The notes: generated from the sequence alone by a model not told the origin. 64,000 bases of DNA from Clostridia bacterium (GCA_050950825.1 JBMNIH010000003.1:256001-320000), one strand, 5' to 3'; counted from the stretch's first letter, positions 3,248 through 49,918 are shown. Translations and numbers: made by a program.

Positions 3248-3943
3248 TTATTTTTCCGTCATGTAGCCGATCCCTCTTACGGTCTTGATGACGGTAGGGT
3301 TTTTCGGATCGTCCTCGATCTTTTCACGAAGACGCTTGATATATACGGTTAAGGTGTTGTCATTGACGTAGTCCCCGGCAATATCCCACATGTCCTCCAA
3401 AAGCTTTCCTCGAGTCATGATTTGCCCGGGTCTTGAAGCCAATATTAATAGGAGGCGGTATTCCATGGCCGTAAGCAAGATTTCTTCTCCGTTTTTATAC
3501 ACCTTCCCTTGGCCCGTGTGAACGGTGACATTTCCCAAGGAAATAACGGAAGGGGCTCCGCTTTCCGCCTTGTATCGCCGAAGGACCGATTTGATACGGG
3601 ACAAAAGCTCCCGAAGCCGAAACGGTTTGGAGACGTAGTCGTCGGCCCCCATATCCAACCCCATCACCACGTTGACCTCATCGTCGGAGGCGGTTAGAAA
3701 AATCACCGGAATCTCGTGTTTTTCCTTAATCCGCTTACACAAATCGTACCCGTTTCCGTCCGGCAAGGATACGTCCAAAATCGCCAAGTCGAAGGGCTTG
3801 TCGTTTATGACCGACAGCGCCGATTTATAGTTTTCACAAGTATATACGGTATATCCTTCCTCCTTTAGGGAGTAGGTAAGACCCGTAGATATGACCGGGT
3901 CGTCTTCAACGAATAATATGGCCGTTCGGTTCATCCTTATCAC
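3248..3943 (-). CDS. OmpR-family response regulator
   Basis: VEDD, LDVSLPDGNG, GADDYVSKPF, C-terminal winged helix TVRGIGY. Confidence 0.95.
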   Translation of the reverse strand: MIRMNRTAILFVEDDPVISTGLTYSLKEEGYTVYTCENYKSALSVINDKPFDLAILDVSLPDGNGYDLCKRIKEKHEIPVIFLTASDDEVNVVMGLDMGADDYVSKPFRLRELLSRIKSVLRRYKAESGAPSVISLGNVTVHTGQGKVYKNGEEILLTAMEYRLLLILASRPGQIMTRGKLLEDMWDIAGDYVNDNTLTVYIKRLREKIEDDPKNPTVIKTVRGIGYMTEK

Positions 3944-31190: not shown

Positions 31191-31320
31191 GTATACAACT
31201 CATTAGCGTAAAGTAAGTTTCGGATAATAATCAATGGAAGAATATAACAAATAGAAAGAGGACCCCGATTGTGATATGATTAAATTTCCATACAAAAAAT
31301 CACAAAGGAAGGTGTCCTCT

Positions 31321-32805
31321 ATGTATAAAAGTATACTACATTTTATTGAAAATGGGTTAGTCGAAATTGAAAAAATGATGGGTGATATTCTGGCAGGTAA
31401 AAAAGATGCCGATGATTTGACTGCACTCGTTAATAAAGTTACGTCAACGTTAGCGGTCAGCCTTATAGTGGATTTGTACGAGAAAGCTGATAACGATATA
31501 CGAGAAAGCAGCGTGAGAAAAAAGTATTGGAATGTCGAGCACAGGAACAAAAAGAAAACCATCGTAGATGTCATGGGTAAGGTTGAATTCTGCCGAACCG
31601 GATATTGTGCGAAAGGAACGGGTGAGTATGTATATCTTTTGGATCAGGTGCTCGGATTTGAACCGCACCAGAAGGTAACGCTAGGCGCAGCTGCGAGAGC
31701 CTTGGAAGAAAGTATAGACAGCAGTTACCGCAAAGGCGGAGAGAATGCGAGCATAAAAGCGGAAGAAGGCATTAGCAAACAAGCCGTAATGGATCTGGTA
31801 CATGAGATTGAGGCGGACATGCCGATGCCGGAACCGGAAGGAAAGAAGAAGATAAAAAGGCTTCATGTCATAGCCGATGAAGATCATGTGGCGGCACAGT
31901 TTTGGAATGAAAAGGGCGATTTGAAGCGAGATGCGAGGGGCCATAAGATTAATACCCTGATGCCTAAGCTTGTTTGTGTATTCGAGGACATTATCAATGA
32001 ATCGGGGGAAGCATCCAAGAATCCCAGATATAAGCTGATCGGAAAAAAATACTTTTGCGGTATTTACGAGGGTGGCAAAGGCAACGAAAAGCTTTGGATG
32101 GAGGTTGCCGAATACATAGAAAAAACATACGATACGGACTATCTTGAGAGAATATACGTAGTCGGAGACGGAGCTTCGTGGATAAAAAAAGGATGCGAAT
32201 ATTTGGAGAACAGCAAATATGTCCTTGATAAATACCATATGATGAAATATATAAACAGGTCAGTGGCGCATCTTTACGATAGCGCGGACGAGGTGAAAGA
32301 CTGGATTTGGGGAGCCTTGAATCGTTTGGACAAAAAGGAATTGAAGAATATCTATGAGCAGATCCTGAAGGTTACGGAAAGTGAAAACAAGAAGCAAGAA
32401 GTGGAAGATGCGTTAAGATATTTTCTAAATCATTGGCAAGGGATAAAAACCCGAGTGGAAGAAACAAGCGGCTGGACATATTGCATAGAAGGGCAAATAA
32501 GCCATGTATTGTCGGCAAGAATGAGCAGCAGACCAATGGGATGGAGCGAATTGGGTTGCGACCGCATGGCAAGGCTCAGAGCGTACAAAAGAAACGGCGG
32601 TAAGATTCTTGACTTGCTAAAATATCAAAAACAACGAAAAAAGCAAAAGGAAAGGCGTGAAGCACAAGAAGAATTGATAAGAGATCTGAGAAGAAGACAT
32701 TCAAAATGGACGTATGCGGAAGATACCAGACGTCACATACATGGTTTGGAAAGGAGCAGTATGAAGTGGCTAAAGAATATGACCACACTGGCTTGGGACG
32801 CATAA
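31321..32805 (+). CDS. ISLre2-family (UPF0236) transposase
   Basis: ADEDHV, GDGASWIK, LDKYH, EGQISHVLSARMSSRPMGWS; ATG at 31321 after GGAAGG. Confidence 0.92.
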   Translation: MYKSILHFIENGLVEIEKMMGDILAGKKDADDLTALVNKVTSTLAVSLIVDLYEKADNDIRESSVRKKYWNVEHRNKKKTIVDVMGKVEFCRTGYCAKGTGEYVYLLDQVLGFEPHQKVTLGAAARALEESIDSSYRKGGENASIKAEEGISKQAVMDLVHEIEADMPMPEPEGKKKIKRLHVIADEDHVAAQFWNEKGDLKRDARGHKINTLMPKLVCVFEDIINESGEASKNPRYKLIGKKYFCGIYEGGKGNEKLWMEVAEYIEKTYDTDYLERIYVVGDGASWIKKGCEYLENSKYVLDKYHMMKYINRSVAHLYDSADEVKDWIWGALNRLDKKELKNIYEQILKVTESENKKQEVEDALRYFLNHWQGIKTRVEETSGWTYCIEGQISHVLSARMSSRPMGWSELGCDRMARLRAYKRNGGKILDLLKYQKQRKKQKERREAQEELIRDLRRRHSKWTYAEDTRRHIHGLERSSMKWLKNMTTLAWDA

Positions 32806-32848
32806 GCAGCTTGAACCGCTATGACTTTGTAACCGTGTGACGGTAGGC

Positions 32849-33012
32849 TTTATGCCGCGAAAGTCGCTTTACGATGAGTAGACGGCATGTTAGGCTTGTC
32901 TGCCTGGCATCAAACACACAAAGCCGTATCCGGCTTCACCCTGTAGGAAGATGCCGCAGAGGCCACTAAACATGCCGGCAGAGGCTCGTCGTAAAGCGAA
33001 CCGTGGAATAAA
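32849..33012 (+). ncRNA. Putative structured RNA in the ISLre2 3' non-coding region (transposase-associated motif)
   Basis: Nested helices TTTAT.CCGCG/CGTGG.ATAAA, TCGCTTTACGATGAG/CTCGTCGTAAAGCGA, CGGCATGTT/AACATGCCG, GGCATC/GATGCC; covaries with the copy at 36801-36971. Confidence 0.7.
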
Positions 33013-33411
33013 TGAGTACTTTACTTGTGCATTTGCTATTGTCTTCATGAATTCTTAAATAGGTGATGTGTAATAATCAATTAAAAAAACAAATGTGGAA
33101 AAATTGATGGAAATGATATATGATACAGACAAGATTTAATCTTATCATAAGGGTGAACTCTCTCTTTTTATTTCCGAATGTATATTGACGCTATCATACA
33201 ACTCCATAATATGGACATTAATATTAAATTTTTGATATAATTGTTTTTAATTAGATAGATAAAAGATAGAAAATACTACTTATTAATAGTTGATTCTACT
33301 GCAAAAAGATCATTCTTACGCTCGTAAAATTACACTAATGACATAATAAAATCCAATTTATGGTATTCAATTGCGATAAACGTCCCGAATTTGGGTATCA
33401 GCTACCTCGAT

Positions 33412-33431
33412 TCGATATCAAATCGAGGTAG
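33412..33431. terminator. Inner part of a hairpin downstream of the IS1182-like transposase (full stem 33402-33431)
   Basis: CTACCTCGATT-N8-AATCGAGGTAG followed by TTTT. Confidence 0.4.
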
Positions 33432-33488
33432 TTTTCATATGTTTTTTACCTTTTGCCTAATAAAAGGCACAATAATCCCTTTTGTTTG

Positions 33489-35075
33489 TCAAGTTGTTAC
33501 TTTTGCATATCCGCCTTGCAAAAATTTGATAACTCGTTTTATGTTCTGCGCCATTGATAAGAATCCGCATACAACGGTTGATTTAATCAAACCGCGTACC
33601 TTCATATTATTCAGTCCTGTGCGTTTCAACGCCGAAACGGTTCCTTCGATTCCCGCTCTCTTACTAACGTTTTCCTTCCTGCAAGTGGCTATTTCTTCTC
33701 GTTTCCTTGCGGTTTCCATTGCTTTTTCACTGATTCTCACCACACAGTTTTTGTTCTGTTGCTTGCTGTAGCATCTGTTAAAATGCTCGCATTGCAGACA
33801 AACATCTTTTTCGAAGTATGCCACCAATTGTCCTTTCGCTCTAACCGATCGGAAAGGCATATGACCCGCAGGGCATTTTTCAATCAGTCCCGTTTCTTCT
33901 TTTATTTCAAACTCACTCACCGAGATCTTGTCCGACGGCTTCCGTCCGCACATGTCCGTCAAATGGATTTGGACATCATTGGCTTCCGCGGCTTTGTATA
34001 CATCTTCCGAGTGAAAACCTCCGTCTATGTACATGTCGGTACATCCGGTGTTTTCTTTGACCTTTCGGATTCGCCCGCTTAATATTTCTTTGTCGCTTAC
34101 AATGTTGGGCTTAACGGCGTAATCGGTAATCAATTGAACTTTGTTGTCTTTCGAGCAGGTTTCCGATACCTCAAGTACATAGCCGCTTTGCCCTTTATTG
34201 CCTTTCTTTCGATAGGTGGCGTCCTCGTCATAGGCGGATTGAAGCGAATCGGACGAGATTTCTTTGCTCTTCTTCGGTACAAGGTTACCGTTTTTATCGG
34301 TCTCCGACTGTTCTTTGATGAACCGTTCCAGTATGCGAACTTCGTCCGATTCTTTCTTGTCGGGCAGTTCCTTCAATATCTTGAGAGCTTCCGCGCTCAT
34401 AGACAAAAGCGTCGTAAGCCTGCTTTCCGTATCGACGGTTCTTACCTTATGCAGCATTTCGGTTTTGAAATCCTTTTCAAGAACCTTCCCCATTGATTCG
34501 GGTCTTTGTTCTTTCGGAATGGCTTTTACCCCTTTCTCCAATACGTCGTAAGCCAATGCCAATCGACCCGCTTTCTTGATATTGCTTACGAACATGGTCG
34601 TATCGGTTCTTTGTTCGTCGAGCGAGGTTCCCGTCAGTTTCGCAAAATTCCTCAGTAACTCTATGAATTGACCGAATAAGAGGTTTTCGTCCTCGGGATG
34701 CTCCGTCAAATATTCATATACTCTTTCCCGAAAGTAATACAGCGTTCTTTCCGATATGTAAATCTCGCCAAGCGTTTTCCCTCCGACGGCATAAGTCGTT
34801 TGATAATCAAGATATAGGGAATCCAAAAGATCTTGATCATTCAGATCTTTCATATACTTGATATATTCCAAAGACAGCAATATATTCACAGGTGTATTCG
34901 GTCTGCCTGTCTTGCTGTACAATTTCGCAAAAGGTTCTTCGTTGATATGGCAAAATACATGTTCATAGAATACAGGTGCCCAAGATTTTTTAAATCTTTC
35001 GCGTGCTTTTTCATGCATCCAATCGAGACTTGAGAAAATCGGTTGTTGTTTATGTGAATCGTTTGCTCTGAACAT
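33489..35075 (-). CDS. DDE transposase, IS1182/IS5-like
   Basis: GRPNTPVNILL, RTDTTMFVSNIK, DEDATYRKK, YIDGGF, CPAG...CLQCEH..C, RAGIEGTVSALKR; element ends not resolved. Confidence 0.82.
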   Translation of the reverse strand: MFRANDSHKQQPIFSSLDWMHEKARERFKKSWAPVFYEHVFCHINEEPFAKLYSKTGRPNTPVNILLSLEYIKYMKDLNDQDLLDSLYLDYQTTYAVGGKTLGEIYISERTLYYFRERVYEYLTEHPEDENLLFGQFIELLRNFAKLTGTSLDEQRTDTTMFVSNIKKAGRLALAYDVLEKGVKAIPKEQRPESMGKVLEKDFKTEMLHKVRTVDTESRLTTLLSMSAEALKILKELPDKKESDEVRILERFIKEQSETDKNGNLVPKKSKEISSDSLQSAYDEDATYRKKGNKGQSGYVLEVSETCSKDNKVQLITDYAVKPNIVSDKEILSGRIRKVKENTGCTDMYIDGGFHSEDVYKAAEANDVQIHLTDMCGRKPSDKISVSEFEIKEETGLIEKCPAGHMPFRSVRAKGQLVAYFEKDVCLQCEHFNRCYSKQQNKNCVVRISEKAMETARKREEIATCRKENVSKRAGIEGTVSALKRTGLNNMKVRGLIKSTVVCGFLSMAQNIKRVIKFLQGGYAKVTT

Positions 35076-35220
35076 AAAATATATCTCCGGAAAATTCAAA
35101 ATATGGATTAATGAAACATATCTATTTTACCATAAAACCTGTCTCAAGTCTAGTGTTTTCAAGTGTTTCGAGGCTTTTTAAGAGCCTTTTATGAAATTTT
35201 CTAGGTACATTATATAATGT

Positions 35221-35365
35221 ACCCTATAGCTTGGACACTTTGGGTTTTCAAAACCCTTACCATCGGACATTAGGTTTTTGAAAAAACCCTACATTTCGGA
35301 CAATAGATTTTATATAATCCCTGTTGTTCGGACACATGCATTTTCAAAACCCTATATTCCGGACA
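35221..35365 (+). repeat. Five phased copies of the IR core (A/T)CCCT-N7-GGACA
   Basis: Copies start at 35221, 35253, 35286, 35318 and 35349 (period 31-33 bp). Confidence 0.85.
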
Positions 35366-35429
35366 AGAACAGTTTTTGACTTCAATTCAGATGCATATTA
35401 CAATAAATGTAGTTGGATTGGAGGCATAT

Positions 35430-35834
35430 ATGGCAAATAAGAAATTTACCCCAGAAGAAATGTCCGAGTTAAGAAAAAGCAAGTATGTTCTGGATGTATC
35501 ACCAAGCACTGTACACTTCTCTGCGGAATTCAAAAAAGAATTCTGGAATGCACTAATGCAAGGGAAATTACCAAAAGATATAGTTAAATCTCTTGGCATT
35601 AATCCCGAGATACTAGGCGAAATAAGGATTGGCGGATTAAAAACAATGATCCGTAATGAAGTAAAAAAAGGCAATGGATTCCGTGACTTGAATACTTATA
35701 TGCAAGCTGGAAACGGCTATATGTCAGCAGAAAACAGGATTAAATACCTAGAGATGCAACTGGCATATAAGGAGCAAGAGATAGAGTTTCTAAAAAAAAT
35801 TGTATCTTTAGATCCGGAGGCACGGGAATTATGA
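35430..35834 (+). CDS. IS3-family OrfA (HTH)
   Basis: GGAGG RBS; ends ...YLEMQLAYKEQEIEFLKK with an A8 slippery run at 35792-35799. Confidence 0.85.
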   Translation: MANKKFTPEEMSELRKSKYVLDVSPSTVHFSAEFKKEFWNALMQGKLPKDIVKSLGINPEILGEIRIGGLKTMIRNEVKKGNGFRDLNTYMQAGNGYMSAENRIKYLEMQLAYKEQEIEFLKKIVSLDPEAREL

Positions 35835-36790
35835 TCATTCCTGCAAATGCCAAGTATAAAATCATACAAGAAACAGTAGCACTGCATGGGAATCTTTTAA
35901 ATGTTTCTGTCCTGTGCGAAATCGCTGGTGTTTCTAGATCCGGCTATTATCACTATCTCACTACAGAAGAAGTTAGAAAACAGAAAGAAGAACAGGATCA
36001 ACAGGATTTTCTTCTCATCATAGAAGCATATAAACACAGAGGATATGATAAGGGTGCACGTGGGATTTATATGAGATTACTGCATCAGACTCCACCGGTT
36101 GTCATGAACATAAAAAAGATTCGGCGTCTTATGAAGAAGTATGGATTAAAATGCCCAATTCGCAAAGCAAATCCATACAGACGTATAGCAAAAGCGATAG
36201 GTACTTCCTATGTCGCTCCAAATCTCCTGAATCGCGAGTTTGAGGAACATGGACCACGGAAAGTTCTGCTTACAGATATCACATATATTATTAACGGTAG
36301 AGCACCTAGATGCTATATGTCTACTATTATAGATGCCTGTACAAAAGAACTCCTAGCATGGGTAGTGAGTCCATCTTTGGAAGTTGATTTTGTACTTGAG
36401 ACAGTGAATCAGCTCATTGAAAAACATGGGATTTCCTTAACGGCAGAAACCCTAATCCACAGTGATCAAGGGTCACATTACACTAGTCTTAGTTTTATAC
36501 AGCTGATTAAAAACAGCGAATTAAGGCAGTCAATGTCCAGAAGGGCAAACTGCTGGGATAACGCTCCGCAAGAGTCCTTCTTCGGACATATGAAGGATGA
36601 AATTCATATCGAAGAGTGTAACACTTATGAAGAAATCCTATCAGCAATAACTGACTGGACAGAGTATTATAACTACGAAAGATATCAATGGGATTTAGCA
36701 AAGCTATCTCCTGCAGAGTATTACAAATATTTAACAACTGGCGAGTATCCACTAAATATACCCAAGCCAAATGGATTCAAGGAGAGCTGA
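35831..36790 (+). CDS. IS3-family OrfB (rve integrase-core DDE); probably also fused to OrfA by -1 frameshift
   Basis: VSRSGYY, TDITY, HSDQGSHY, SMSRRANCWDNAPQESFFGHMK; the -1 frame is open from the A8 run to the ATG at 35831. Confidence 0.93.
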   Translation: MIIPANAKYKIIQETVALHGNLLNVSVLCEIAGVSRSGYYHYLTTEEVRKQKEEQDQQDFLLIIEAYKHRGYDKGARGIYMRLLHQTPPVVMNIKKIRRLMKKYGLKCPIRKANPYRRIAKAIGTSYVAPNLLNREFEEHGPRKVLLTDITYIINGRAPRCYMSTIIDACTKELLAWVVSPSLEVDFVLETVNQLIEKHGISLTAETLIHSDQGSHYTSLSFIQLIKNSELRQSMSRRANCWDNAPQESFFGHMKDEIHIEECNTYEEILSAITDWTEYYNYERYQWDLAKLSPAEYYKYLTTGEYPLNIPKPNGFKES

Positions 36791-36800
36791 TGGGAAGGCA

Positions 36801-36971
36801 GCGTTTATGCCGCGAAAGCCTCTTGACAATGAGAGCCCGGCATGTTAGGCTATCTGACCGGGCATCAACCACCTCCAGAGCCCTTCTGCCTTGTTCAGCA
36901 TGGGGGATGCCTCTGATGCCAGCAAACATGCCGGCAGAGGCTCGTTGTCAAGAGGATCGTGGAATAAATGC
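36801..36971 (+). ncRNA. Putative structured RNA in the IS3 3' non-coding region (same motif as in ISLre2)
   Basis: GCGTTTAT.CCGCG/CGTGG.ATAAATGC, CCTCTTGACAATGAG/CTCGTTGTCAAGAGG, CCGGCATGTT/AACATGCCGG, GGCATC/GATGCC. Confidence 0.7.
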
Positions 36972-37109
36972 GGAAACCTGACTCCGAAACACCGGTATGG
37001 TAGTACTCAAAGTCCGGGACAGGTGAATCAACAGCCACTGAATACTCATTTATGAATTGAAATCAAAAACTCATTTTGTCCTTGACAAAGGGTACACTTT
37101 AAACAGTTA

Positions 37110-41816: not shown

Positions 41817-43682
41817 ATGTCGAAGCGATTCATTCGAATCTGCTGTTTATTAACAGCAGTGGTAATGATGGCAACGTTCATTGGTTGTGCGCAATCGACG
41901 GAACAACAAGAAGTAACGACCACCGGTACCACTACGGCCGTGACAACAACAAAGGCCGTAACGACCACAACGGCCCAAACAACCACAACAGCTCAAACAA
42001 CTACCGCTGCGGTGGAAACAAACCCATTCGCTGAATTTTACGAAGTCAGCTGGATCTCCGGATTCTGCGACACGTACGAGGAAGGCGCCTATGACGAGTT
42101 GATGATTGAAGAAAAATACAACATTGACATCAAAACATGGAACATCAGCTATTACGACGCCGAAGGATTGACCATGATGTTAGCGGCAGGAGAAATACCC
42201 GATTTCAGTTATATCCCCTACGCTCCCATGGATGCGATTCAATTATACGAAGAAGGATTTACTCGAACCGTTCCTTTGGAGTTCTACAAAAAGTACTTCC
42301 CCTACTACTACGAACAGATGGAAAAACATAAACCCTCCAGTTATGTGTATAACAACGTTCCGGGAACCGACGAATACTACGGAATTTCCTTTATCATGAC
42401 CACTTGGAAAAACTACTATAACGGCCCCATATACCGTTTGGATTGGTTGGAGAACATCGGTTACGAAATTCCGGAATCCGAATTGACGCCCATTCCCATG
42501 ACCGACGAAAAATTAGGAAAATACAACGGCAATCTTTTTGTCACCAACTTTATGTTTGAATTTGACGAAATGAACGATATTTTCCGCGCCTTCACGGAGG
42601 ACGACCCGGATGGCAACGGTGAAGACGACACCTACGCCGCCGTTGTATTCAACCATACCTTCCGTGCTGCATGGGTTGATCTGTACTGGGGCATGTTCGG
42701 TGTTAACTCTTCCGAAAACAACTACCTATACTTGGAAGAATCCACCGGAGACGTGGTTCCTTGGTTTGCTTACTCCGGTTACAGGGATTACATGGCATGG
42801 GCAAATGAAATGTATGAAAAAGGCTACATGAGAACCTTGGATCTGTCCGACGGCGCTTACTGGTACGACGTGCTTTTAGCGACATGGCTTACAGGTAAGG
42901 TCGGATTCTTTACCGCCGACAGGCAATACATCGGACGTCCCCATTTTCCGGAATATTCCGACCGTCAGCCTCCCCAAAGCTTATGGTTAAACGGATTTGA
43001 AGACGCCACCTTTGTCTGTATGCCGGTATTGAAAGGGCCCGGAGAAGTATGGGGTAACAGAAGATACGGCCTCGACGCATTTGCCGACGGTAAATGGAGA
43101 ACCTACAACGTATCCAAAGCCGTTTCCGACGGAGAGCTGCAGCGTATACTGACCATGTGGAACGACCGCTACAGCGATCCTTACGACGAATGGAACGTGA
43201 AAGTATGGATCGGTATCGAAGGCGTTCACTTCAAATGGGAAGGCGAACCGTGGAAATCCGCTATGATGACCACCGAAGCCGACAAGGTTCCTCCGCAGTA
43301 TCGAAGAGGCGGATTCTGGGGCGGCAGCTTCTTAGGCGAAACCCTGTACTACGGACACGAAGCCGCATTCTACTACTACACATTTGCGGAAGAGAACGAT
43401 TGGGTGAAAAAGTACTGCATCGAGCCTCATAAGTACATAAACAAGTTGAATATGGGCGCCGAATTATACGAAGAATACGTTAAGGAATACGCCGAATACA
43501 GCGGAAGCATCAACGCAGCCGTTTCCGACTTTGCAAACCGTGTTTGGAGAGGCGAAATTGCGGATCTGAATACCGAATGGCAGCAATACATCGACCAGCT
43601 GTATGCGGCGGGACTTGAAATCATCATCGACAAATACTACAACAACGATGCATTCCCGCAATATCAAAGACCCGAGTTTTAA
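41817..43682 (+). CDS. Extracellular solute-binding lipoprotein (LplA/AlgQ-like), paralog 1
   Basis: Lipobox FIGC, Thr-rich linker, LAAGEIPD, YRLDWLENIG, DPDGNGEDDT. Confidence 0.8.
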   Translation: MSKRFIRICCLLTAVVMMATFIGCAQSTEQQEVTTTGTTTAVTTTKAVTTTTAQTTTTAQTTTAAVETNPFAEFYEVSWISGFCDTYEEGAYDELMIEEKYNIDIKTWNISYYDAEGLTMMLAAGEIPDFSYIPYAPMDAIQLYEEGFTRTVPLEFYKKYFPYYYEQMEKHKPSSYVYNNVPGTDEYYGISFIMTTWKNYYNGPIYRLDWLENIGYEIPESELTPIPMTDEKLGKYNGNLFVTNFMFEFDEMNDIFRAFTEDDPDGNGEDDTYAAVVFNHTFRAAWVDLYWGMFGVNSSENNYLYLEESTGDVVPWFAYSGYRDYMAWANEMYEKGYMRTLDLSDGAYWYDVLLATWLTGKVGFFTADRQYIGRPHFPEYSDRQPPQSLWLNGFEDATFVCMPVLKGPGEVWGNRRYGLDAFADGKWRTYNVSKAVSDGELQRILTMWNDRYSDPYDEWNVKVWIGIEGVHFKWEGEPWKSAMMTTEADKVPPQYRRGGFWGGSFLGETLYYGHEAAFYYYTFAEENDWVKKYCIEPHKYINKLNMGAELYEEYVKEYAEYSGSINAAVSDFANRVWRGEIADLNTEWQQYIDQLYAAGLEIIIDKYYNNDAFPQYQRPEF

Positions 43683-43935: not shown

Positions 43936-45807
43936 ATGATGTCCAAGCGTTTCATACGTATCTGCTGTATACTTATAGCAGCAGCAATGATATCTACACT
44001 TATCGGTTGTTCTCAATCGACGGAACAACAAGATGAGACGACAACCGGTACTACTGCGGCTGCGACGACAACAAAGGCCGTCACGACCACCACTACCCAA
44101 ACAACCACAGCCAAAGCCGAAACAACGACCGCTCCGGTAGAAGAAAACCCCTTTGCGGAGTTTTATGAAGTGACATGGATCAGCGGCTTTGGTGCAGATT
44201 ACGAAGAAGGCGCTTATGATGAGCTGATGATCGAAGAAAAATACAACATCGACTTAAAAGTCTGGAACATCAGTTATTATGACGCCGAGGGATTGACCAT
44301 GATGTTAGCGGCAGGCGATATTCCCGATATCAGCTATATCCCTTACGCTCCCATGGATGCAATCCAATTGTACGAGGAAGGATTTACCCGGACCATTCCG
44401 CTGGAGTTCTACAAAAAATACTTCCCTTATTACTACGAGCAAATGGAAAAACATGCTCCTACCAGCTTTATGTACAACAATGTTCCGGGAACCGAAGAAT
44501 ACTACGGAATTTCCTTTATCCAAACCACTTGGAAGAACTATTATAACGGTCCCATTTTCCGTTTGGATTGGTTGGAAAACATCGGTTATGAAATTCCGGA
44601 ATCCGAACTGACGCCCATTCCCTTGACCGATGAAAAATTAGGCAAATACAACGGGAAATTATTCGTCACCGACTATATGTTTGAGTTCGACGAAATGAAC
44701 GATATTTTCCGCGCCTTCACGGAAGACGACCCGGATGGCAACGGTGAAGACGACACCTACGCCGCCGTATTGTTCGATCATACCTTCCGCTCCGCTTGGG
44801 TAGACCTCTACTGGGGTATGTTCGGTGTCAACTCTTCCGAAAACAACTATCTATACCTGGAAGAATCCACAGGGGACGTAGTTCCTTGGTTCGCTTACTC
44901 CGGATACAGGGATTATTTGGCATGGGCCAATGAAATGCATGAAAAAGGCTACATGAGAACCTTGGATCTGTCCGACGGCGCTTACTGGTACGATGTACTT
45001 TTAGCGACATGGCTTACGGGTAAGGTGGGATTCTTTACCGCCGACAGACAATACATCGGTCGTCCCCATTTCCCGGAATACTCCGACCGTCAGCCGCCCC
45101 AAAGCTTATGGCTAAACGGGCTTGAAGACGCCACCTTTGTTTGCATGCCGGTACTGAAAGGACCCGGAGAAGTTTGGGGCAACAGAAGATACGGGTTGGA
45201 AGCATTTGCCGACGGAAAATGGAGAACCTTCAATGTGTCCAAAGCCGTTTCCGACGGAGAACTGCAGCGTATTCTGACCATGTGGAATGACCGTTACAGC
45301 AATCCTTTGGACGACTGGAACGTGAAGGTGTATATCGGAATCGAAGGTGTTCACTTCAAATGGGAAGGCGAACCTTGGAAATCCGCAATGATCACCACGG
45401 AAGCCGACAAGGTTCCTCCGCAGTACCGAAGAGCGGGCTTCTTCGGCGGAAGCTTCTTGGCCGAATCCTTATATTATTCCCATGAAGCGGCTTACTATTA
45501 TTACACCTTTGCGGAAGAACACGATTGGGTGAAAAAGTACTGCCTCGAACCCTATAAATACATAAGCAAAATGCAAATGGGTGCCGATTTGTACGATCAA
45601 TATATTGAAGAATACAATGAATACAGCGGAAGCATCAACGCTGCCGTCAGCGATTTTGCGAATCGCGCATGGAGAGGCGAAATTGCCGATCTGAATACCG
45701 AATGGCAGCAGTACATCAACCAGTTGTATGCGGCAGGCCTGGAGGTCATTATCGACAAGTATTACAACAACGACGCATTCCCGGTTTACAAAAGACCCGA
45801 ATTTTAA
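43936..45807 (+). CDS. Extracellular solute-binding lipoprotein, paralog 2
   Basis: Lipobox LIGC; same motifs as paralog 1 and highly similar to it. Confidence 0.8.
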   Translation: MMSKRFIRICCILIAAAMISTLIGCSQSTEQQDETTTGTTAAATTTKAVTTTTTQTTTAKAETTTAPVEENPFAEFYEVTWISGFGADYEEGAYDELMIEEKYNIDLKVWNISYYDAEGLTMMLAAGDIPDISYIPYAPMDAIQLYEEGFTRTIPLEFYKKYFPYYYEQMEKHAPTSFMYNNVPGTEEYYGISFIQTTWKNYYNGPIFRLDWLENIGYEIPESELTPIPLTDEKLGKYNGKLFVTDYMFEFDEMNDIFRAFTEDDPDGNGEDDTYAAVLFDHTFRSAWVDLYWGMFGVNSSENNYLYLEESTGDVVPWFAYSGYRDYLAWANEMHEKGYMRTLDLSDGAYWYDVLLATWLTGKVGFFTADRQYIGRPHFPEYSDRQPPQSLWLNGLEDATFVCMPVLKGPGEVWGNRRYGLEAFADGKWRTFNVSKAVSDGELQRILTMWNDRYSNPLDDWNVKVYIGIEGVHFKWEGEPWKSAMITTEADKVPPQYRRAGFFGGSFLAESLYYSHEAAYYYYTFAEEHDWVKKYCLEPYKYISKMQMGADLYDQYIEEYNEYSGSINAAVSDFANRAWRGEIADLNTEWQQYINQLYAAGLEVIIDKYYNNDAFPVYKRPEF

Positions 45808-45878: not shown

Positions 45879-46013
45879 ATAGATATTTTTCTTATTAGCG
45901 TAAAGTAAGTTTCGGATAATAATCAATGGAGGAATATAACAAATAGAAAGAGGACCCCGATTGTGATATGATTAAATTTCCAAAACAAAAAATCACAAAG
46001 GAAGGTGTCCTCT

Positions 46014-47498
46014 ATGTATAAAAGTATACTACATTTTATTGAAAATGGGTTAGTCGAAATTGAAAAAATGATGGGTGATATTCTGGCAGGTAAAAAAGAT
46101 GCCGATGATTTGACTGCACTCGTTAATAAAGTTACGTCAACGTTAGCGGTCAGCCTTATAGCGGATTTGTACGAGAAAGCTGATAACGATATACGAGAAA
46201 GCAGCGTGAGAAAAAAGTATTGGAATGTCGAGCACAGGAACAAAAAGAAAACCATCGTAGATGTCATGGGTAAGGTTGAATTCTGCCGAACCGGATATTG
46301 TGCGAAAGGAACGGGTGAGTATGTATATCTTTTGGATCAGGTGCTCGGATTTGAACCGCACCAGAAGGTAACGCTAGGCGCAGCTGCGAGAGCCTTGGAA
46401 GAAAGTATAGACAGCAGTTACCGCAAAGGCGGAGAGAATGCAAGCATAAAAGCGGAAGAAGGCATTAGCAAACAAGCCGTGATGGATCTGGTACATGAGA
46501 TTGAGGCGGACATGCCGATGCCGGAACCGGAAGGAAAGAAGAAGATAAAAAGGCTTCATGTCATAGCCGATGAAGATCATGTGGCGGCACAGTTTTGGAA
46601 TGAAAAGGGCGATTTGAAGCGAGATGCGAGGGGCCATAAGATTAATACCCTGATGCCTAAGCTTGTTTGTGTATTCGAGGATATTATCAATGAATCGGGG
46701 GAAGCATCCAAGAATCCCAGATATAAGCTGATCGGAAAAAAATACTTTTGCGGTATTTACGAGGGTGGCAAAGGCAACGAAAAGCTTTGGATGGAGGTTG
46801 CCGAATACATAGAAAAAACATACGATACGGACTATCTTGAGAGAATATACGTAGTCGGAGACGGAGCTTCGTGGATAAAAAAAGGATGCGAATATTTGGA
46901 GAACAGCAAATATGTCCTTGATAAATACCATATGATGAAATATATAAACAGGTCAGTGGCGCATCTTTACGATAGCGCGGACGAGGTGAAAGACTGGATT
47001 TGGGGAGCCTTGAATCGTTTGGACAAAAAGGAATTGAAGAATATCTATGAGCAGATCCTGAAGGTTACGGAAAGTGAAAACAAGAAGCAAGAAGTGGAAG
47101 ATGCGTTAAGATATTTTCTAAATCATTGGCAAGGGATAAAAACCCGAGTGGAAGAAACAAGCGGCTGGACATATTGCATAGAAGGGCAAATAAGCCATGT
47201 ATTGTCGGCAAGAATGAGCAGCAGACCAATGGGATGGAGCGAATTGGGTTGCGACCGCATGGCAAGGCTCAGAGCGTACAAAAGAAACGGCGGTAAGATT
47301 CTTGACTTGCTAAAATATCAAAAACAACGAAAAAAGCAAAAGGAAAGGCGTGAAGCACAAGAAGAATTGATAAGAGATCTGAGAAGAAGACATTCAAAAT
47401 GGACGTATGCGGAAGATACCAGACGTCACATACATGGTTTGGAAAGGAGCAGTATGAAGTGGCTAAAGAATATGACCACACTGGCTTGGGACGCATAA
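46014..47498 (+). CDS. ISLre2-family (UPF0236) transposase
   Basis: Identical to copy 1 except one V/A substitution. Confidence 0.92.
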   Translation: MYKSILHFIENGLVEIEKMMGDILAGKKDADDLTALVNKVTSTLAVSLIADLYEKADNDIRESSVRKKYWNVEHRNKKKTIVDVMGKVEFCRTGYCAKGTGEYVYLLDQVLGFEPHQKVTLGAAARALEESIDSSYRKGGENASIKAEEGISKQAVMDLVHEIEADMPMPEPEGKKKIKRLHVIADEDHVAAQFWNEKGDLKRDARGHKINTLMPKLVCVFEDIINESGEASKNPRYKLIGKKYFCGIYEGGKGNEKLWMEVAEYIEKTYDTDYLERIYVVGDGASWIKKGCEYLENSKYVLDKYHMMKYINRSVAHLYDSADEVKDWIWGALNRLDKKELKNIYEQILKVTESENKKQEVEDALRYFLNHWQGIKTRVEETSGWTYCIEGQISHVLSARMSSRPMGWSELGCDRMARLRAYKRNGGKILDLLKYQKQRKKQKERREAQEELIRDLRRRHSKWTYAEDTRRHIHGLERSSMKWLKNMTTLAWDA

Positions 47499-47541
47499 GC
47501 AGCTTGAACCGCTATGACTTTGTAACCGTGTGACGGTAGGC

Positions 47542-47705
47542 TTTATGCCGCGAAAGTCGCTTTACGATGAGTAGACGGCATGTTAGGCTTGTCTGCCTGG
47601 CATCAAACACACAAAGCCGTATCCGGCTTCACCCTGTAGGAAGATGCCGCAGAGGCCACTAAACATGCCGGCAGAGGCTCGTCGTAAAGCGAACCGTGGA
47701 ATAAA
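47542..47705 (+). ncRNA. Putative structured RNA, ISLre2 copy 2
   Basis: Identical to 32849-33012. Confidence 0.7.
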
Positions 47706-47905
47706 TGAGTACTTTACTTGTGCATTTGCTATTGTCTTCATGAATTCTTAAATAGGTGATGTGTAATAATCAATTAAAAAAACAAATGTGGAAAAATTGA
47801 TGGAAATGATATATGATACAGACAAGATTTAATCTTATCATAAGGGTGAACTCTCTCTTTTTATTTCCGAATGTATATTGACGCTATCATTTTTCTTTTC
47901 CAAAG

Positions 47906-48052: not shown

Positions 48053-49918
48053 ATGTCGAAGCGATTCATTCGAATCTGCTGTATGTTAACAGCAGTGGTA
48101 ATGATGGCAACGTTCATTGGTTGTGCGCAATCGACGGAACAACAAGAAGAAACGACCACCGGTACCACTACGGCCGTGACGACAACAAAAGCCGTCACGA
48201 CCACAACGGCCCAAACAACCACAACAGCTCAAACAACTACCGCTGCGGTGGAAACAAACCCATTCGCTGAATTTTACGAAGTCAGCTGGATCTCCGGATT
48301 CTGCGACACGTACGAGGAAGGCGCCTATGACGAGTTGATGATTGAAGAAAAATACAACATTGACATCAAAACATGGAACATCAGCTATTACGACGCCGAA
48401 GGATTGACCATGATGTTAGCGGCAGGAGAAATACCCGATTTCAGTTATATCCCCTACGCTCCCATGGATGCGATTCAATTATACGAAGAAGGATTTACTC
48501 GAACCGTTCCTTTGGAGTTCTACAAAAAGTACTTCCCCTACTACTACGAACAGATGGAAAAACATAAACCCTCCAGTTATGTGTATAACAACGTTCCGGG
48601 AACCGACGAATACTACGGAATTTCCTTTATCATGACCACTTGGAAAAACTACTATAACGGCCCCATATACCGTTTGGATTGGTTGGAGAACATCGGTTAC
48701 GAAATTCCGGAATCCGAATTGACGCCCATTCCCATGACCGACGAAAAATTAGGAAAATACAACGGCAATCTTTTTGTCACCAACTTTATGTTTGAATTTG
48801 ACGAAATGAACGATATTTTCCGCGCCTTCACGGAGGACGACCCGGATGGCAACGGTGAAGACGACACCTACGCCGCCGTTGTATTCAACCATACCTTCCG
48901 TGCTGCATGGGTTGATCTGTACTGGGGCATGTTCGGTGTTAACTCTTCCGAAAACAACTACCTATACTTGGAAGAATCCACCGGAGACGTGGTTCCTTGG
49001 TTTGCTTACTCCGGTTACAGGGATTACATGGCATGGGCAAATGAAATGTATGAAAAAGGCTACATGAGAACCTTGGATCTGTCCGACGGCGCTTACTGGT
49101 ACGACGTGCTTTTAGCGACATGGCTTACAGGTAAGGTCGGATTCTTTACCGCCGACAGGCAATACATCGGACGTCCCCATTTTCCGGAATATTCCGACCG
49201 TCAGCCTCCCCAAAGCTTATGGTTAAACGGATTTGAAGACGCCACCTTTGTCTGTATGCCGGTATTGAAAGGGCCCGGAGAAGTATGGGGTAACAGAAGA
49301 TACGGCCTCGACGCATTTGCCGACGGTAAATGGAGAACCTACAACGTATCCAAAGCCGTTTCCGACGGAGAGCTGCAGCGTATACTGACCATGTGGAACG
49401 ACCGCTACAGCGATCCTTACGACGAATGGAACGTGAAAGTATGGATCGGTATCGAAGGCGTTCACTTCAAATGGGAAGGCGAACCGTGGAAATCCGCTAT
49501 GATGACCACCGAAGCCGACAAGGTTCCTCCGCAGTATCGAAGAGGCGGATTCTGGGGCGGCAGCTTCTTAGGCGAAACCCTGTACTACGGACACGAAGCC
49601 GCATTCTACTACTACACATTTGCGGAAGAGAACGATTGGGTGAAAAAGTACTGCATCGAGCCTCATAAGTACATAAACAAGTTGAATATGGGCGCCGAAT
49701 TATACGAAGAATACGTTAAGGAATACGCCGAATACAGCGGAAGCATCAACGCAGCCGTTTCCGACTTTGCAAACCGTGTTTGGAGAGGCGAAATTGCGGA
49801 TCTGAATACCGAATGGCAGCAATACATCGACCAGCTGTATGCGGCGGGACTTGAAATCATCATCGACAAATACTACAACAACGATGCATTCCCGCAATAT
49901 CAAAGACCGGAATTCTAA
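48053..49918 (+). CDS. Extracellular solute-binding lipoprotein, paralog 3
   Basis: 619/621 aa identical to paralog 1. Confidence 0.8.
   Translation: MSKRFIRICCMLTAVVMMATFIGCAQSTEQQEETTTGTTTAVTTTKAVTTTTAQTTTTAQTTTAAVETNPFAEFYEVSWISGFCDTYEEGAYDELMIEEKYNIDIKTWNISYYDAEGLTMMLAAGEIPDFSYIPYAPMDAIQLYEEGFTRTVPLEFYKKYFPYYYEQMEKHKPSSYVYNNVPGTDEYYGISFIMTTWKNYYNGPIYRLDWLENIGYEIPESELTPIPMTDEKLGKYNGNLFVTNFMFEFDEMNDIFRAFTEDDPDGNGEDDTYAAVVFNHTFRAAWVDLYWGMFGVNSSENNYLYLEESTGDVVPWFAYSGYRDYMAWANEMYEKGYMRTLDLSDGAYWYDVLLATWLTGKVGFFTADRQYIGRPHFPEYSDRQPPQSLWLNGFEDATFVCMPVLKGPGEVWGNRRYGLDAFADGKWRTYNVSKAVSDGELQRILTMWNDRYSDPYDEWNVKVWIGIEGVHFKWEGEPWKSAMMTTEADKVPPQYRRGGFWGGSFLGETLYYGHEAAFYYYTFAEENDWVKKYCIEPHKYINKLNMGAELYEEYVKEYAEYSGSINAAVSDFANRVWRGEIADLNTEWQQYIDQLYAAGLEIIIDKYYNNDAFPQYQRPEF

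Follow-up and report, generated by a model that had tools for sequence, protein, structure and literature searches.

Insertion sequences of several families in a Clostridia bacterium carry a probable palA/ssoA-type single-strand origin

Introduction

Single-strand origins (sso's) are a type of plasmid element known since the 1980s; they are inert as duplex DNA and fold into a long hairpin once the strand that carries them is single-stranded. A block named RSB that recurs in them was first defined as a plasmid recombination site. In the descriptions of plasmid sso's, the folded single strand recruits RNA polymerase, which makes a short primer from which the complementary strand is made (PMC5703833, PMC4595007, PMC8860593). 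Such sso's function solely on the leading strand and in one orientation; the ssoA origins are ~160 nucleotides (nt) long, are primed by RNA polymerase and have the RSB in common with the ssoU, ssoT and ssoW origins; the same source describes the RSB as a site of plasmid co-integration and the function of ssoA as restricted to certain hosts, which limits plasmid host range (PMC5703833). The RSB forms the loop-distal stem that is required, together with internal promoters, for RNA polymerase binding, and the motif CS-6 ends the primer (PMC8860593); for plasmid pSELNU1, the RSB is quoted together with CS-6 as a loop motif (PMC4598088). Here we describe a hairpin module of 169-171 nt that occurs in three copies, within insertion sequences (ISs) of the ISLre2 and IS3 types, in a 64-kb stretch from a Clostridia bacterium (GCA_050950825.1, JBMNIH010000003.1:256001-320000; hereafter the window, to which coordinates refer unless another sequence is named), which is part of a 3.55-Mb assembly of 11 contigs. 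A preliminary description, made from the sequence alone, had taken the module for a structured RNA shared by two unrelated transposases. We conclude with high confidence that it is an sso of the palA/ssoA type and not an RNA gene. It is thus a known kind of single-stranded DNA (ssDNA) hairpin, and what appears to be new is its residence inside ISs of several families.

Results

The three copies lie on the plus strand, at 32847-33015 and, with the same sequence, at 47540-47708 in two ISLre2-type ISs, and at 36801-36971 in an IS3-type IS. The 5' block of the module agrees with the RSB as quoted for pSELNU1 (PMC4598088) in 12 of the first 13 nt, and it aligns with the RSB of pT181, pC194 and pE194. 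In the ISLre2 copy, this RSB-like block (TTTATGCCGCGAAAG, 32849-32863) lies in the loop-distal 5' arm and pairs with 33002-33012; its counterpart in the IS3 copy (36804-36818) pairs with 36958-36968. A covariance model (R1) was built from six IS-borne versions of the module and zero plasmid sequences; its E-values are rough, the calibration having been shortened. R1 scores 154.9 bits on the first ISLre2 copy and 170.5 bits on the IS3 copy, and it finds full-length matches in 3 of 5 reference plasmids, namely immediately behind mobV in pT181 (3768-3928; 41.1 bits, E = 2.8 × 10−9), and at one site each in pC194 (36.1 bits, E = 1.8 × 10−8) and pE194 (31.2 bits, E = 3.2 × 10−7). The palA origin of pT181 presumably occupies this same place directly after mobV. 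R1 has no match in pUB110 (ssoU) or pTA1060 (ssoT), and membership in the ssoT and ssoU types was rejected on this ground. An 8-kb Bacillus sonorensis plasmid with a rep gene and a MOBV relaxase gene carries a complete module between genes (75.7 bits); this full plasmid copy is visible only by the covariance model, because blastn of the IS3 copy against the plasmid collection matched just the first 35-36 nt, in 6 Bacillus plasmids.

Comparison with the palA/ssoA elements of pT181, pC194 and pE194 shows the same ~160-nt hairpin, with the RSB in the loop-distal 5' arm and its partner at the 3' end, the same order of helices and the same strand specificity, and the module follows a Mob/Pre gene both in pT181 and in a locus of another genome (L082). 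The differences are that the module described here is located inside ISs without a Rep gene, that it mostly lacks CS-6, that it has several unrelated interiors, and that its hosts are mainly Clostridia, not staphylococci or streptococci. The homology also answers the suggestion that no known family accounts for the module. The window contains no Rfam match at the gathering score, and at E-values up to 10 only plant microRNA and human long non-coding RNA models appear (15 and 11.7 bits, E = 2.4 and 2.9); palA/ssoA have no Rfam entry because they are DNA elements.

The ends of the host ISs were fixed by comparing multiple copies and from the target duplications. The first ISLre2-type IS (31202-33195, plus strand, 1994 bp, 9-bp target duplication) has its transposase open reading frame (ORF) at 31276-32805, encoding an ISLre2-family protein of 509 amino acids (aa), and the module begins 43 nt after the stop at 32805 and ends 180 nt before the end of the IS. 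The second (45894-47888, plus strand) likewise has a 9-bp target duplication, and its ORF is listed at 46005-47498. In the IS3-type IS (35213-37101, plus strand, 1889 bp, 3-4-bp target duplication), orfA (35376-35834) overlaps orfB (35831-36790), and the module begins 10 nt after the orfB stop at 36790 and ends 130 nt before the IS end. On these points the preliminary description was accurate: the places of the three copies, the identity of the ISLre2 pair, the sequence blocks shared by the IS3 copy (as seen in the alignment) and the distances of 10-43 nt from the transposase stop, inside the IS ends, all hold, as does its view of a discrete portable module common to otherwise unrelated ISs. 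In 2 DNA metagenome runs from digester-type samples, we identified the empty site of the first ISLre2-type IS, with a joint from 31192 to 33196 and the 9-bp target present once, which indicates that this IS moved recently.

Folded as RNA, the ISLre2 and IS3 copies reach −81.3 and −85.1 kcal/mol, respectively (z = −6.75 and −4.79; equalled by 0 of 200 shuffles), and folded as DNA they reach −43.5 and −42.7 kcal/mol (z = −7.0 and −5.5 against shuffles). The ssDNA hairpin is 6-8 kcal/mol more stable on the plus strand than on the reverse strand. The module is, like palA/ssoA elements (~130-200 nt), a long imperfect palindrome that is located in non-coding DNA and folds when single-stranded. Helix 1 consists of the RSB and its partner and includes a G/A mismatch as well as a G-T pair that is conserved; inward of it follow an asymmetric internal loop, helix 2 of 14-15 bp, helix 3 and a branched, variable apex. 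Conservation covers helix 2 and, at either end, the outermost 18 nt, and the interior falls into several unrelated types. The four compensatory pairs in helix 2 that had been reported between the ISLre2 and IS3 versions are real (alignment columns 25, 27, 31 and 34), and the stems covary around a variable apex. Among 95 distinct copies from many genomes, in an alignment fitted to the model and with copies chosen by two end motifs, so that helix 1 is uninformative in this test, 92.9% of the paired cells are paired, compared to 74.5% in shuffles and 33-52% when the partners are slid; 44 of the 58 pairs vary in both partners, and none of 500 shuffles attains any of the pairing or covariation measures. 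The covariation noted in the preliminary description thus holds, and its exclusion of a simple terminator agrees with our inspection of the sequence. Its argument from conserved G-U pairs is valid for the preference of one strand and against a double-stranded cruciform, which the strand-specific G-T pairs rule out; an ssDNA hairpin and an RNA fit these pairs equally.

The plus strand of the 5' arm contains a promoter-like site, with a −35 element in helix 2, a spacer of 16-18 nt, a TG and a −10-like hexamer. By match to the consensus, a candidate sigma-A-like promoter reads TTTACG-17 nt-TG-n-TAGGCT in the ISLre2 copy (32868-32896) and TTGACA-17 nt-TG-n-TAGGCT in the IS3 copy (36823-36851). The −35 element is fully paired in helix 2, nearly always starting at element position 21-24, and the −10 element is located at a partly open junction; the hexamer is TAGGCT in the commonest interior type and nearer the consensus in the other types. 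Of 102 unique copies, 75 reach a promoter-like score of at least 9 on the plus strand and 18 on the reverse strand, as do 9 of 102 shuffles; the site keeps its fixed place even where the interior of the module is replaced.

In the complete assembly, BLAST and R1 identified 29 module copies and no others, all on R1's strand and all 29 within ISs that have target duplications. These fall into the six versions from which R1 was built: A, in the ISLre2-type IS (13 copies), B, in the IS3-type IS (5), C, in a second ISLre2-type IS (1), and D, E and F, in three lineages of IS256-type elements (1, 6 and 3). The IS256-type elements are 1536-1589 bp long, with 8-bp target duplications, and hold the module between the transposase stop and the IS end on the opposite strand, a switch not expected of an element that depends on the transposase mRNA. 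In a census of the ORF families that have 3 or more copies (25 clusters, 19 representatives scanned), the module is found beside 13 of 14 ORFs of ISLre2 lineage A, 6 of 6 of IS256 lineage E, 3 of 3 of IS256 lineage F and 4 of 5 of IS3 lineage B. Families without the module include IS30-like (3 copies), two IS1182-like (13 and 6), IS4-like (4), IS701-like (4) and IS91 (4) elements and a group II intron (5). Relatives of the carriers that lack the module are shorter by about the length of the module (1392 bp vs. 1536-1589 bp, and 1780 bp vs. 1994 bp), and the difference is confined to the stretch from the stop codon to the IS end. Among lineages D, E and F, the modules are 79-84% identical and the third codon positions 44-60% identical, so that the module is either constrained or exchanged between lineages. 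The match of one metagenome contig covers exactly 32849-33014, amid unrelated flanks, from which it follows that the module travels as a sharply bounded unit; another contig shares the outer stems and differs in the interior. No decayed or truncated copy was found in the genome except one cut by a nested IS. Outside the window, at C2:38745-39256, an ISLre2-type copy is inserted in the first RSB bases of an IS256-type module, trimming 3 nt.

A circularly permuted form of the module base occurs elsewhere in the assembly, at C2:530290-530360 and, on the minus strand, around C2 118868 and C8 53852. Its order is the 3' partner of the RSB, a spacer of ~30 nt with a small hairpin, and the RSB with the residues of the internal loop, and a pairing similar to helix 2 is found outside; the form belongs to a repeat of 3 copies, where an IS30-like (HTH_38) ORF follows ~250 nt downstream of it.

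We further searched 100 other genomes of the same class with R1 and identified the module in 15. Neighbours were named by Pfam and NCBIfam on the nearest ORFs: an ISLre2 transposase gene lies upstream on the same strand at 4 loci, an IS256 gene is convergent at 2, an IS110 gene occurs twice (once downstream of the module, once convergent), an IS30-like gene lies downstream at 1, and several of the remaining modules adjoin ordinary genes or a contig end. A pattern of two motifs, matched exactly, is present in more than 112 stretches, a lower bound, of contigs representing one genome per species; the matches listed are mostly from Clostridia, with some from Bacillus, Peribacillus and Tissierellia and a few contigs of metagenome-assembled genomes (MAGs) labelled otherwise. 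Viral contigs seldom hold the module, the collection giving 2 exact matches to the pattern.

Neighbour counts refer to 81 copies in 80 loci among the matches listed, selected on their end motifs, with nearest ORFs (at least 130 aa, within 600 nt) clustered by BLAST and cluster labels based on 1-2 scanned representatives. A convergent gene for a large serine recombinase adjoins 19 of the 81 listed copies, mostly 9-22 nt past its stop and in one case 119 nt (2 of 21 cluster members scanned), and an IS256 transposase gene adjoins 15 (2 of 15 scanned), 13 of them convergent and 2, from one genome, in the sense orientation. Other transposase genes neighbour 10 (2 ISLre2, 3 unclassified DDE, 2 IS3-family, 1 IS110 and 2 IS30-like), and 1 copy, in L082, follows a Mob_Pre gene by 31 nt, which is the arrangement of pT181. 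The other 36 of the 81 listed copies are outside these classes, and 5 that were scanned adjoin ordinary genes or genes of no family. The module is in the sense orientation in all 9 ISLre2 lineages seen and convergent in all but one IS256 lineage, and in IS30- and IS110-type elements it can be located upstream of the gene. The proposed link to the transposase transcript is not supported, since the module, although after the stop codon, is reversed in the genome's own IS256-type elements and at 13 of the 15 IS256 neighbours listed elsewhere.

In 2 of 2 serine recombinase loci examined, a gene for a rolling-circle Rep protein (PF23343) precedes the recombinase gene. These loci (L131:3163-5933 and L107:4588-7339) consist of the Rep gene, the large serine recombinase gene and, 16-20 nt past its stop and on the other strand, the module. 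From their gene content, such loci look like a family of small integrative rolling-circle elements in Christensenella-like and other Clostridia MAGs. At the serine recombinase copies, the flanks lengthen the stem by unrelated, mutually complementary sequences.

Discussion

Taken as a whole, the explanation of the module as an sso that was added to several IS families, and that hints at an ssDNA stage in their life, appears probable. We infer that the IS-borne copies are active sso's. The IS strand that carries the module would turn single-stranded and fold into the long hairpin, host RNA polymerase would bind the RSB stem and the promoter in the 5' arm and transcribe a short primer that runs towards the apex; DNA polymerases would extend this primer, converting the single strand into duplex.

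The nearest precedent on an integrated mobile element is sso1 of ICEBs1, which converts single-stranded to double-stranded DNA in an orientation-specific manner (PMC4595007); the Rep and serine recombinase loci look similar to this system. The likeness is one of description, not of sequence, and ICEBs1 differs in having a relaxase-driven rolling-circle stage and single-stranded transfer. An IS has neither, and the single-stranded stage must therefore be sought in transposition itself. We take sso916 of Tn916 to be a further sso on an integrated element.

The families IS1, IS3, IS21, IS30, IS256, IS110/IS1111, ISLre2, ISL3 and IS1202 are listed as forming circles and as presumably transposing by copy-out-paste-in (Chandler, Ross, Varani; 10.1101/2023.06.07.543989). 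The families in which we find the module, ISLre2, IS3, IS256, IS30 and IS110, are all on that list, the exceptions being one IS630-type element, one ISNCY element and one unclassified DDE group. In copy-out as described, one strand is circularised and the flanking 3'-OH primes the conversion of the figure-eight to a double-stranded circle, with the details given as "host replication" (PMC7780238, PMC3299598). We tentatively propose that the module primes the complementary strand on an IS strand displaced in copy-out: the circularised IS strand would be displaced in the way of the plus strand of a rolling-circle plasmid, and the sso on it would prime the complement, yielding a double-stranded IS circle that integrates. 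Correspondingly, these ISs may, as a possibility that we hold with the same reserve, carry an sso because a single-stranded circle of the IS, free or displaced, arises in the course of their transposition. If so, the strand of the hairpin would reveal which IS end is cleaved first, that is the right end in the ISLre2- and IS3-type elements described here and the left end in most IS256-type elements. For IS2, of the IS3 family, the right end is described as the sole donor (PMC7780238, PMC3299598); a right-end donor would circularise the transposase-sense strand, which fits the strand of the module in the IS3-type element of the window. Either end is described as a possible donor in IS256 and ISCth4, which fits the presence of the module in both orientations in IS256-type elements.

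Several observations weigh against this explanation. CS-6 (TAGCGT/A), the loop motif by which ssoA is defined and at which its primer ends, was found in pT181 and in just 3 of the 101 non-reference copies, with near-matches (TAGCGC, CAGCGT) in a few copies, including versions D and F; its scarcity makes both the end point of a primer and strict membership in ssoA uncertain. The internal promoter is a candidate identified as a consensus match only. In the same genome, lineages of IS256 (7 copies), IS3 (6), ISLre2 (4) and IS110 (3) lack the module, which is thus dispensable, and they have no clear deficit in copy number. Among the 15 other genomes, one copy adjoins a convergent gene of the IS630 type, a cut-and-paste family, and one an ISNCY gene. 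Within the IS3 family the orientation is not uniform, the module being sense in the window and L101 and convergent in L080; copy-out accommodates this only if members of the family differ in their choice of donor end. No IS circle junction was found among the joints of 2 DNA and 2 RNA runs, which come from assembled contigs that drop rare forms. The resolution of the figure-eight in the standard model needs no sso, and the similarity of modules between IS lineages could reflect their exchange, not purifying selection.

An alternative that we regard as unlikely is that the sso is cargo: it would pay when a replicon without an sso suited to the host, be it a rolling-circle plasmid or an integrative element capable of transfer, receives the IS in the right orientation, and this replicon would be made more stable, with the IS travelling along. 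In its favour, the host restriction of ssoA bounds plasmid host range (PMC5703833), the same type of module is present in rep/mob plasmids and in the Rep and serine recombinase elements, and both orientations in IS256 and IS3 are tolerated without extra assumptions. A distant precedent is the altered host range of a rolling-circle replication vector after insertion of an IS beside its sso (PMC12016507), although the cause there was an inverted repeat of the IS5-family element and not an IS-borne sso. However, all 29 copies in the genome are on contigs of 143-728 kb, none of them plasmid-sized, and the plasmid collection contains no close copy, the blastn matches being those first 35-36 nt in 6 Bacillus plasmids. 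Nor does cargo predict the near-fixed orientation within families, with 9 of 9 ISLre2 lineages in sense and all but one IS256 lineage convergent.

It is rather improbable that the module is a passenger that brings the IS no benefit, spreading by recombination at the hairpin base, surviving in the non-coding stretch after the transposase gene and multiplied by IS copying. The RSB is described as a plasmid co-integration site (PMC5703833), the module has sharp ends (the contig that matches exactly 32849-33014 amid unrelated flanks, and the second contig with the outer stems only), module-bearing ISs exceed their module-less relatives by about the length of the module between stop and IS end, and those relatives thrive in the same genome. 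Against this, the modules of the IS256-type lineages are 79-84% identical where 40-56% of third codon positions differ, compensatory changes preserve the stems, the promoter-like site stays fixed even when the interior is replaced, and no decayed or truncated copies are seen, bar the one cut by a nested IS.

The model of the preliminary description, in which the hairpin works as RNA, be it for 3' stability, for processing or as a scaffold of the transposase transcript, explains fewer features, and we consider it very unlikely. Consistent with it are the position directly behind the stop and in sense, as found in ISLre2-, IS3- and several other elements, the very stable RNA fold, and contigs of two RNA libraries that span the whole IS and the hairpin, contigs that lack ends and strand and may include DNA carry-over. 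However, the module runs opposite to the transposase gene of IS256-type elements and to the serine recombinase genes, is located upstream of the gene in IS30- and IS110-type elements and between genes in plasmids, and matches no Rfam family; its upstream flanks are unconserved, which leaves no promoter of its own outside the hairpin, and the internal promoter would start inside the hairpin, giving an RNA without the 5' arm. Action as duplex DNA, with the internal extended −10 promoter firing from the integrated IS (out of ISLre2- and IS3-type elements, antisense into the transposase gene of IS256-type elements) or with the palindrome blocking transcription across the IS end, is highly improbable and again explains fewer features, because, although the −35 and −10 elements on one arm, with their normal spacing of 16-18 nt and the TG motif, could work in duplex, the −10 is weak (TAGGCT) in most copies, the effect would vary between IS families, the 3' arm, the RSB and the covarying stems are left without a role, and homology to sso's, which are described as acting on single strands in one orientation (PMC5703833, PMC4595007), explains all features together.

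Three other identities were considered and rejected. MITEs (miniature inverted-repeat transposable elements) are likewise short, have terminal inverted repeats and occur in many places, but the module has no target duplication at its ends, no solo copy (0 of 29) and covarying stems beyond the termini; a genome search for unpaired end motifs, as of an autonomous parent, returned chance near-matches and the permuted pair in the 3-copy IS30-like element. An integron attC site was dismissed since the R and L boxes are not found at the hairpin base, as judged by eye against the consensus, with no formal search made, and a k-turn was dropped after inspection of the sequence.

Other known systems resemble the module in part. 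The Frpo element of F and the ssi signals of conjugative plasmids are hairpins that show promoter boxes to RNA polymerase only on ssDNA; they are likened here by description, not by sequence, and the output of Frpo is early gene expression as well as priming. IS200/IS605 and IS91 elements also have hairpins that work on one DNA strand of an IS, but these are short recognition sites of HUH transposases at the IS ends, whereas the module is a putative priming site for a host polymerase in DDE/DEDD elements, and the IS91 lineage of this genome lacks it. The omegaRNA of IS200/IS605 and the bridge RNA or seekRNA of IS110 are, like the module, structured non-coding modules with a variable part beside a transposase gene; they differ in being transcripts of fixed orientation that pair with target or donor DNA, whereas the module flips, occurs in plasmids and has no Rfam match. 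Within the open PMC and bioRxiv literature, supplements excluded, we found no sso inside an IS, or beside Rep and serine recombinase genes in Clostridia.

If the IS-borne copies do act in transposition, a single-stranded stage would have a natural marker in the sso on a defined strand of ISLre2, IS3, IS256, IS30 and IS110 elements, and the ~170-nt module would be a handle for testing that stage. If they are cargo, ISs would hand host-adapted lagging-strand origins to plasmids and integrative elements, which bears on plasmid host range. Searches for structured RNAs will pick up this hairpin, which should be recognised as a DNA element.

Among the other features of the window, an IS1182-like element (33442-35212; ORF 33489-35099, minus strand, 536 aa) lies between the first ISLre2-type IS and the IS3-type IS; it has ~13 copies in the genome, none with the module. 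Three paralogous plus-strand ORFs of ~620 aa (41817-43682, 43936-45807 and 48053-49918), one of which adjoins the second ISLre2-type IS, form a 3-member cluster in the ORF census. The genome is rich in mobile DNA, with at least 12 multi-copy IS lineages and the 5-copy group II intron, and its 4-copy IS91 element is co-repeated with a tyrosine recombinase gene.

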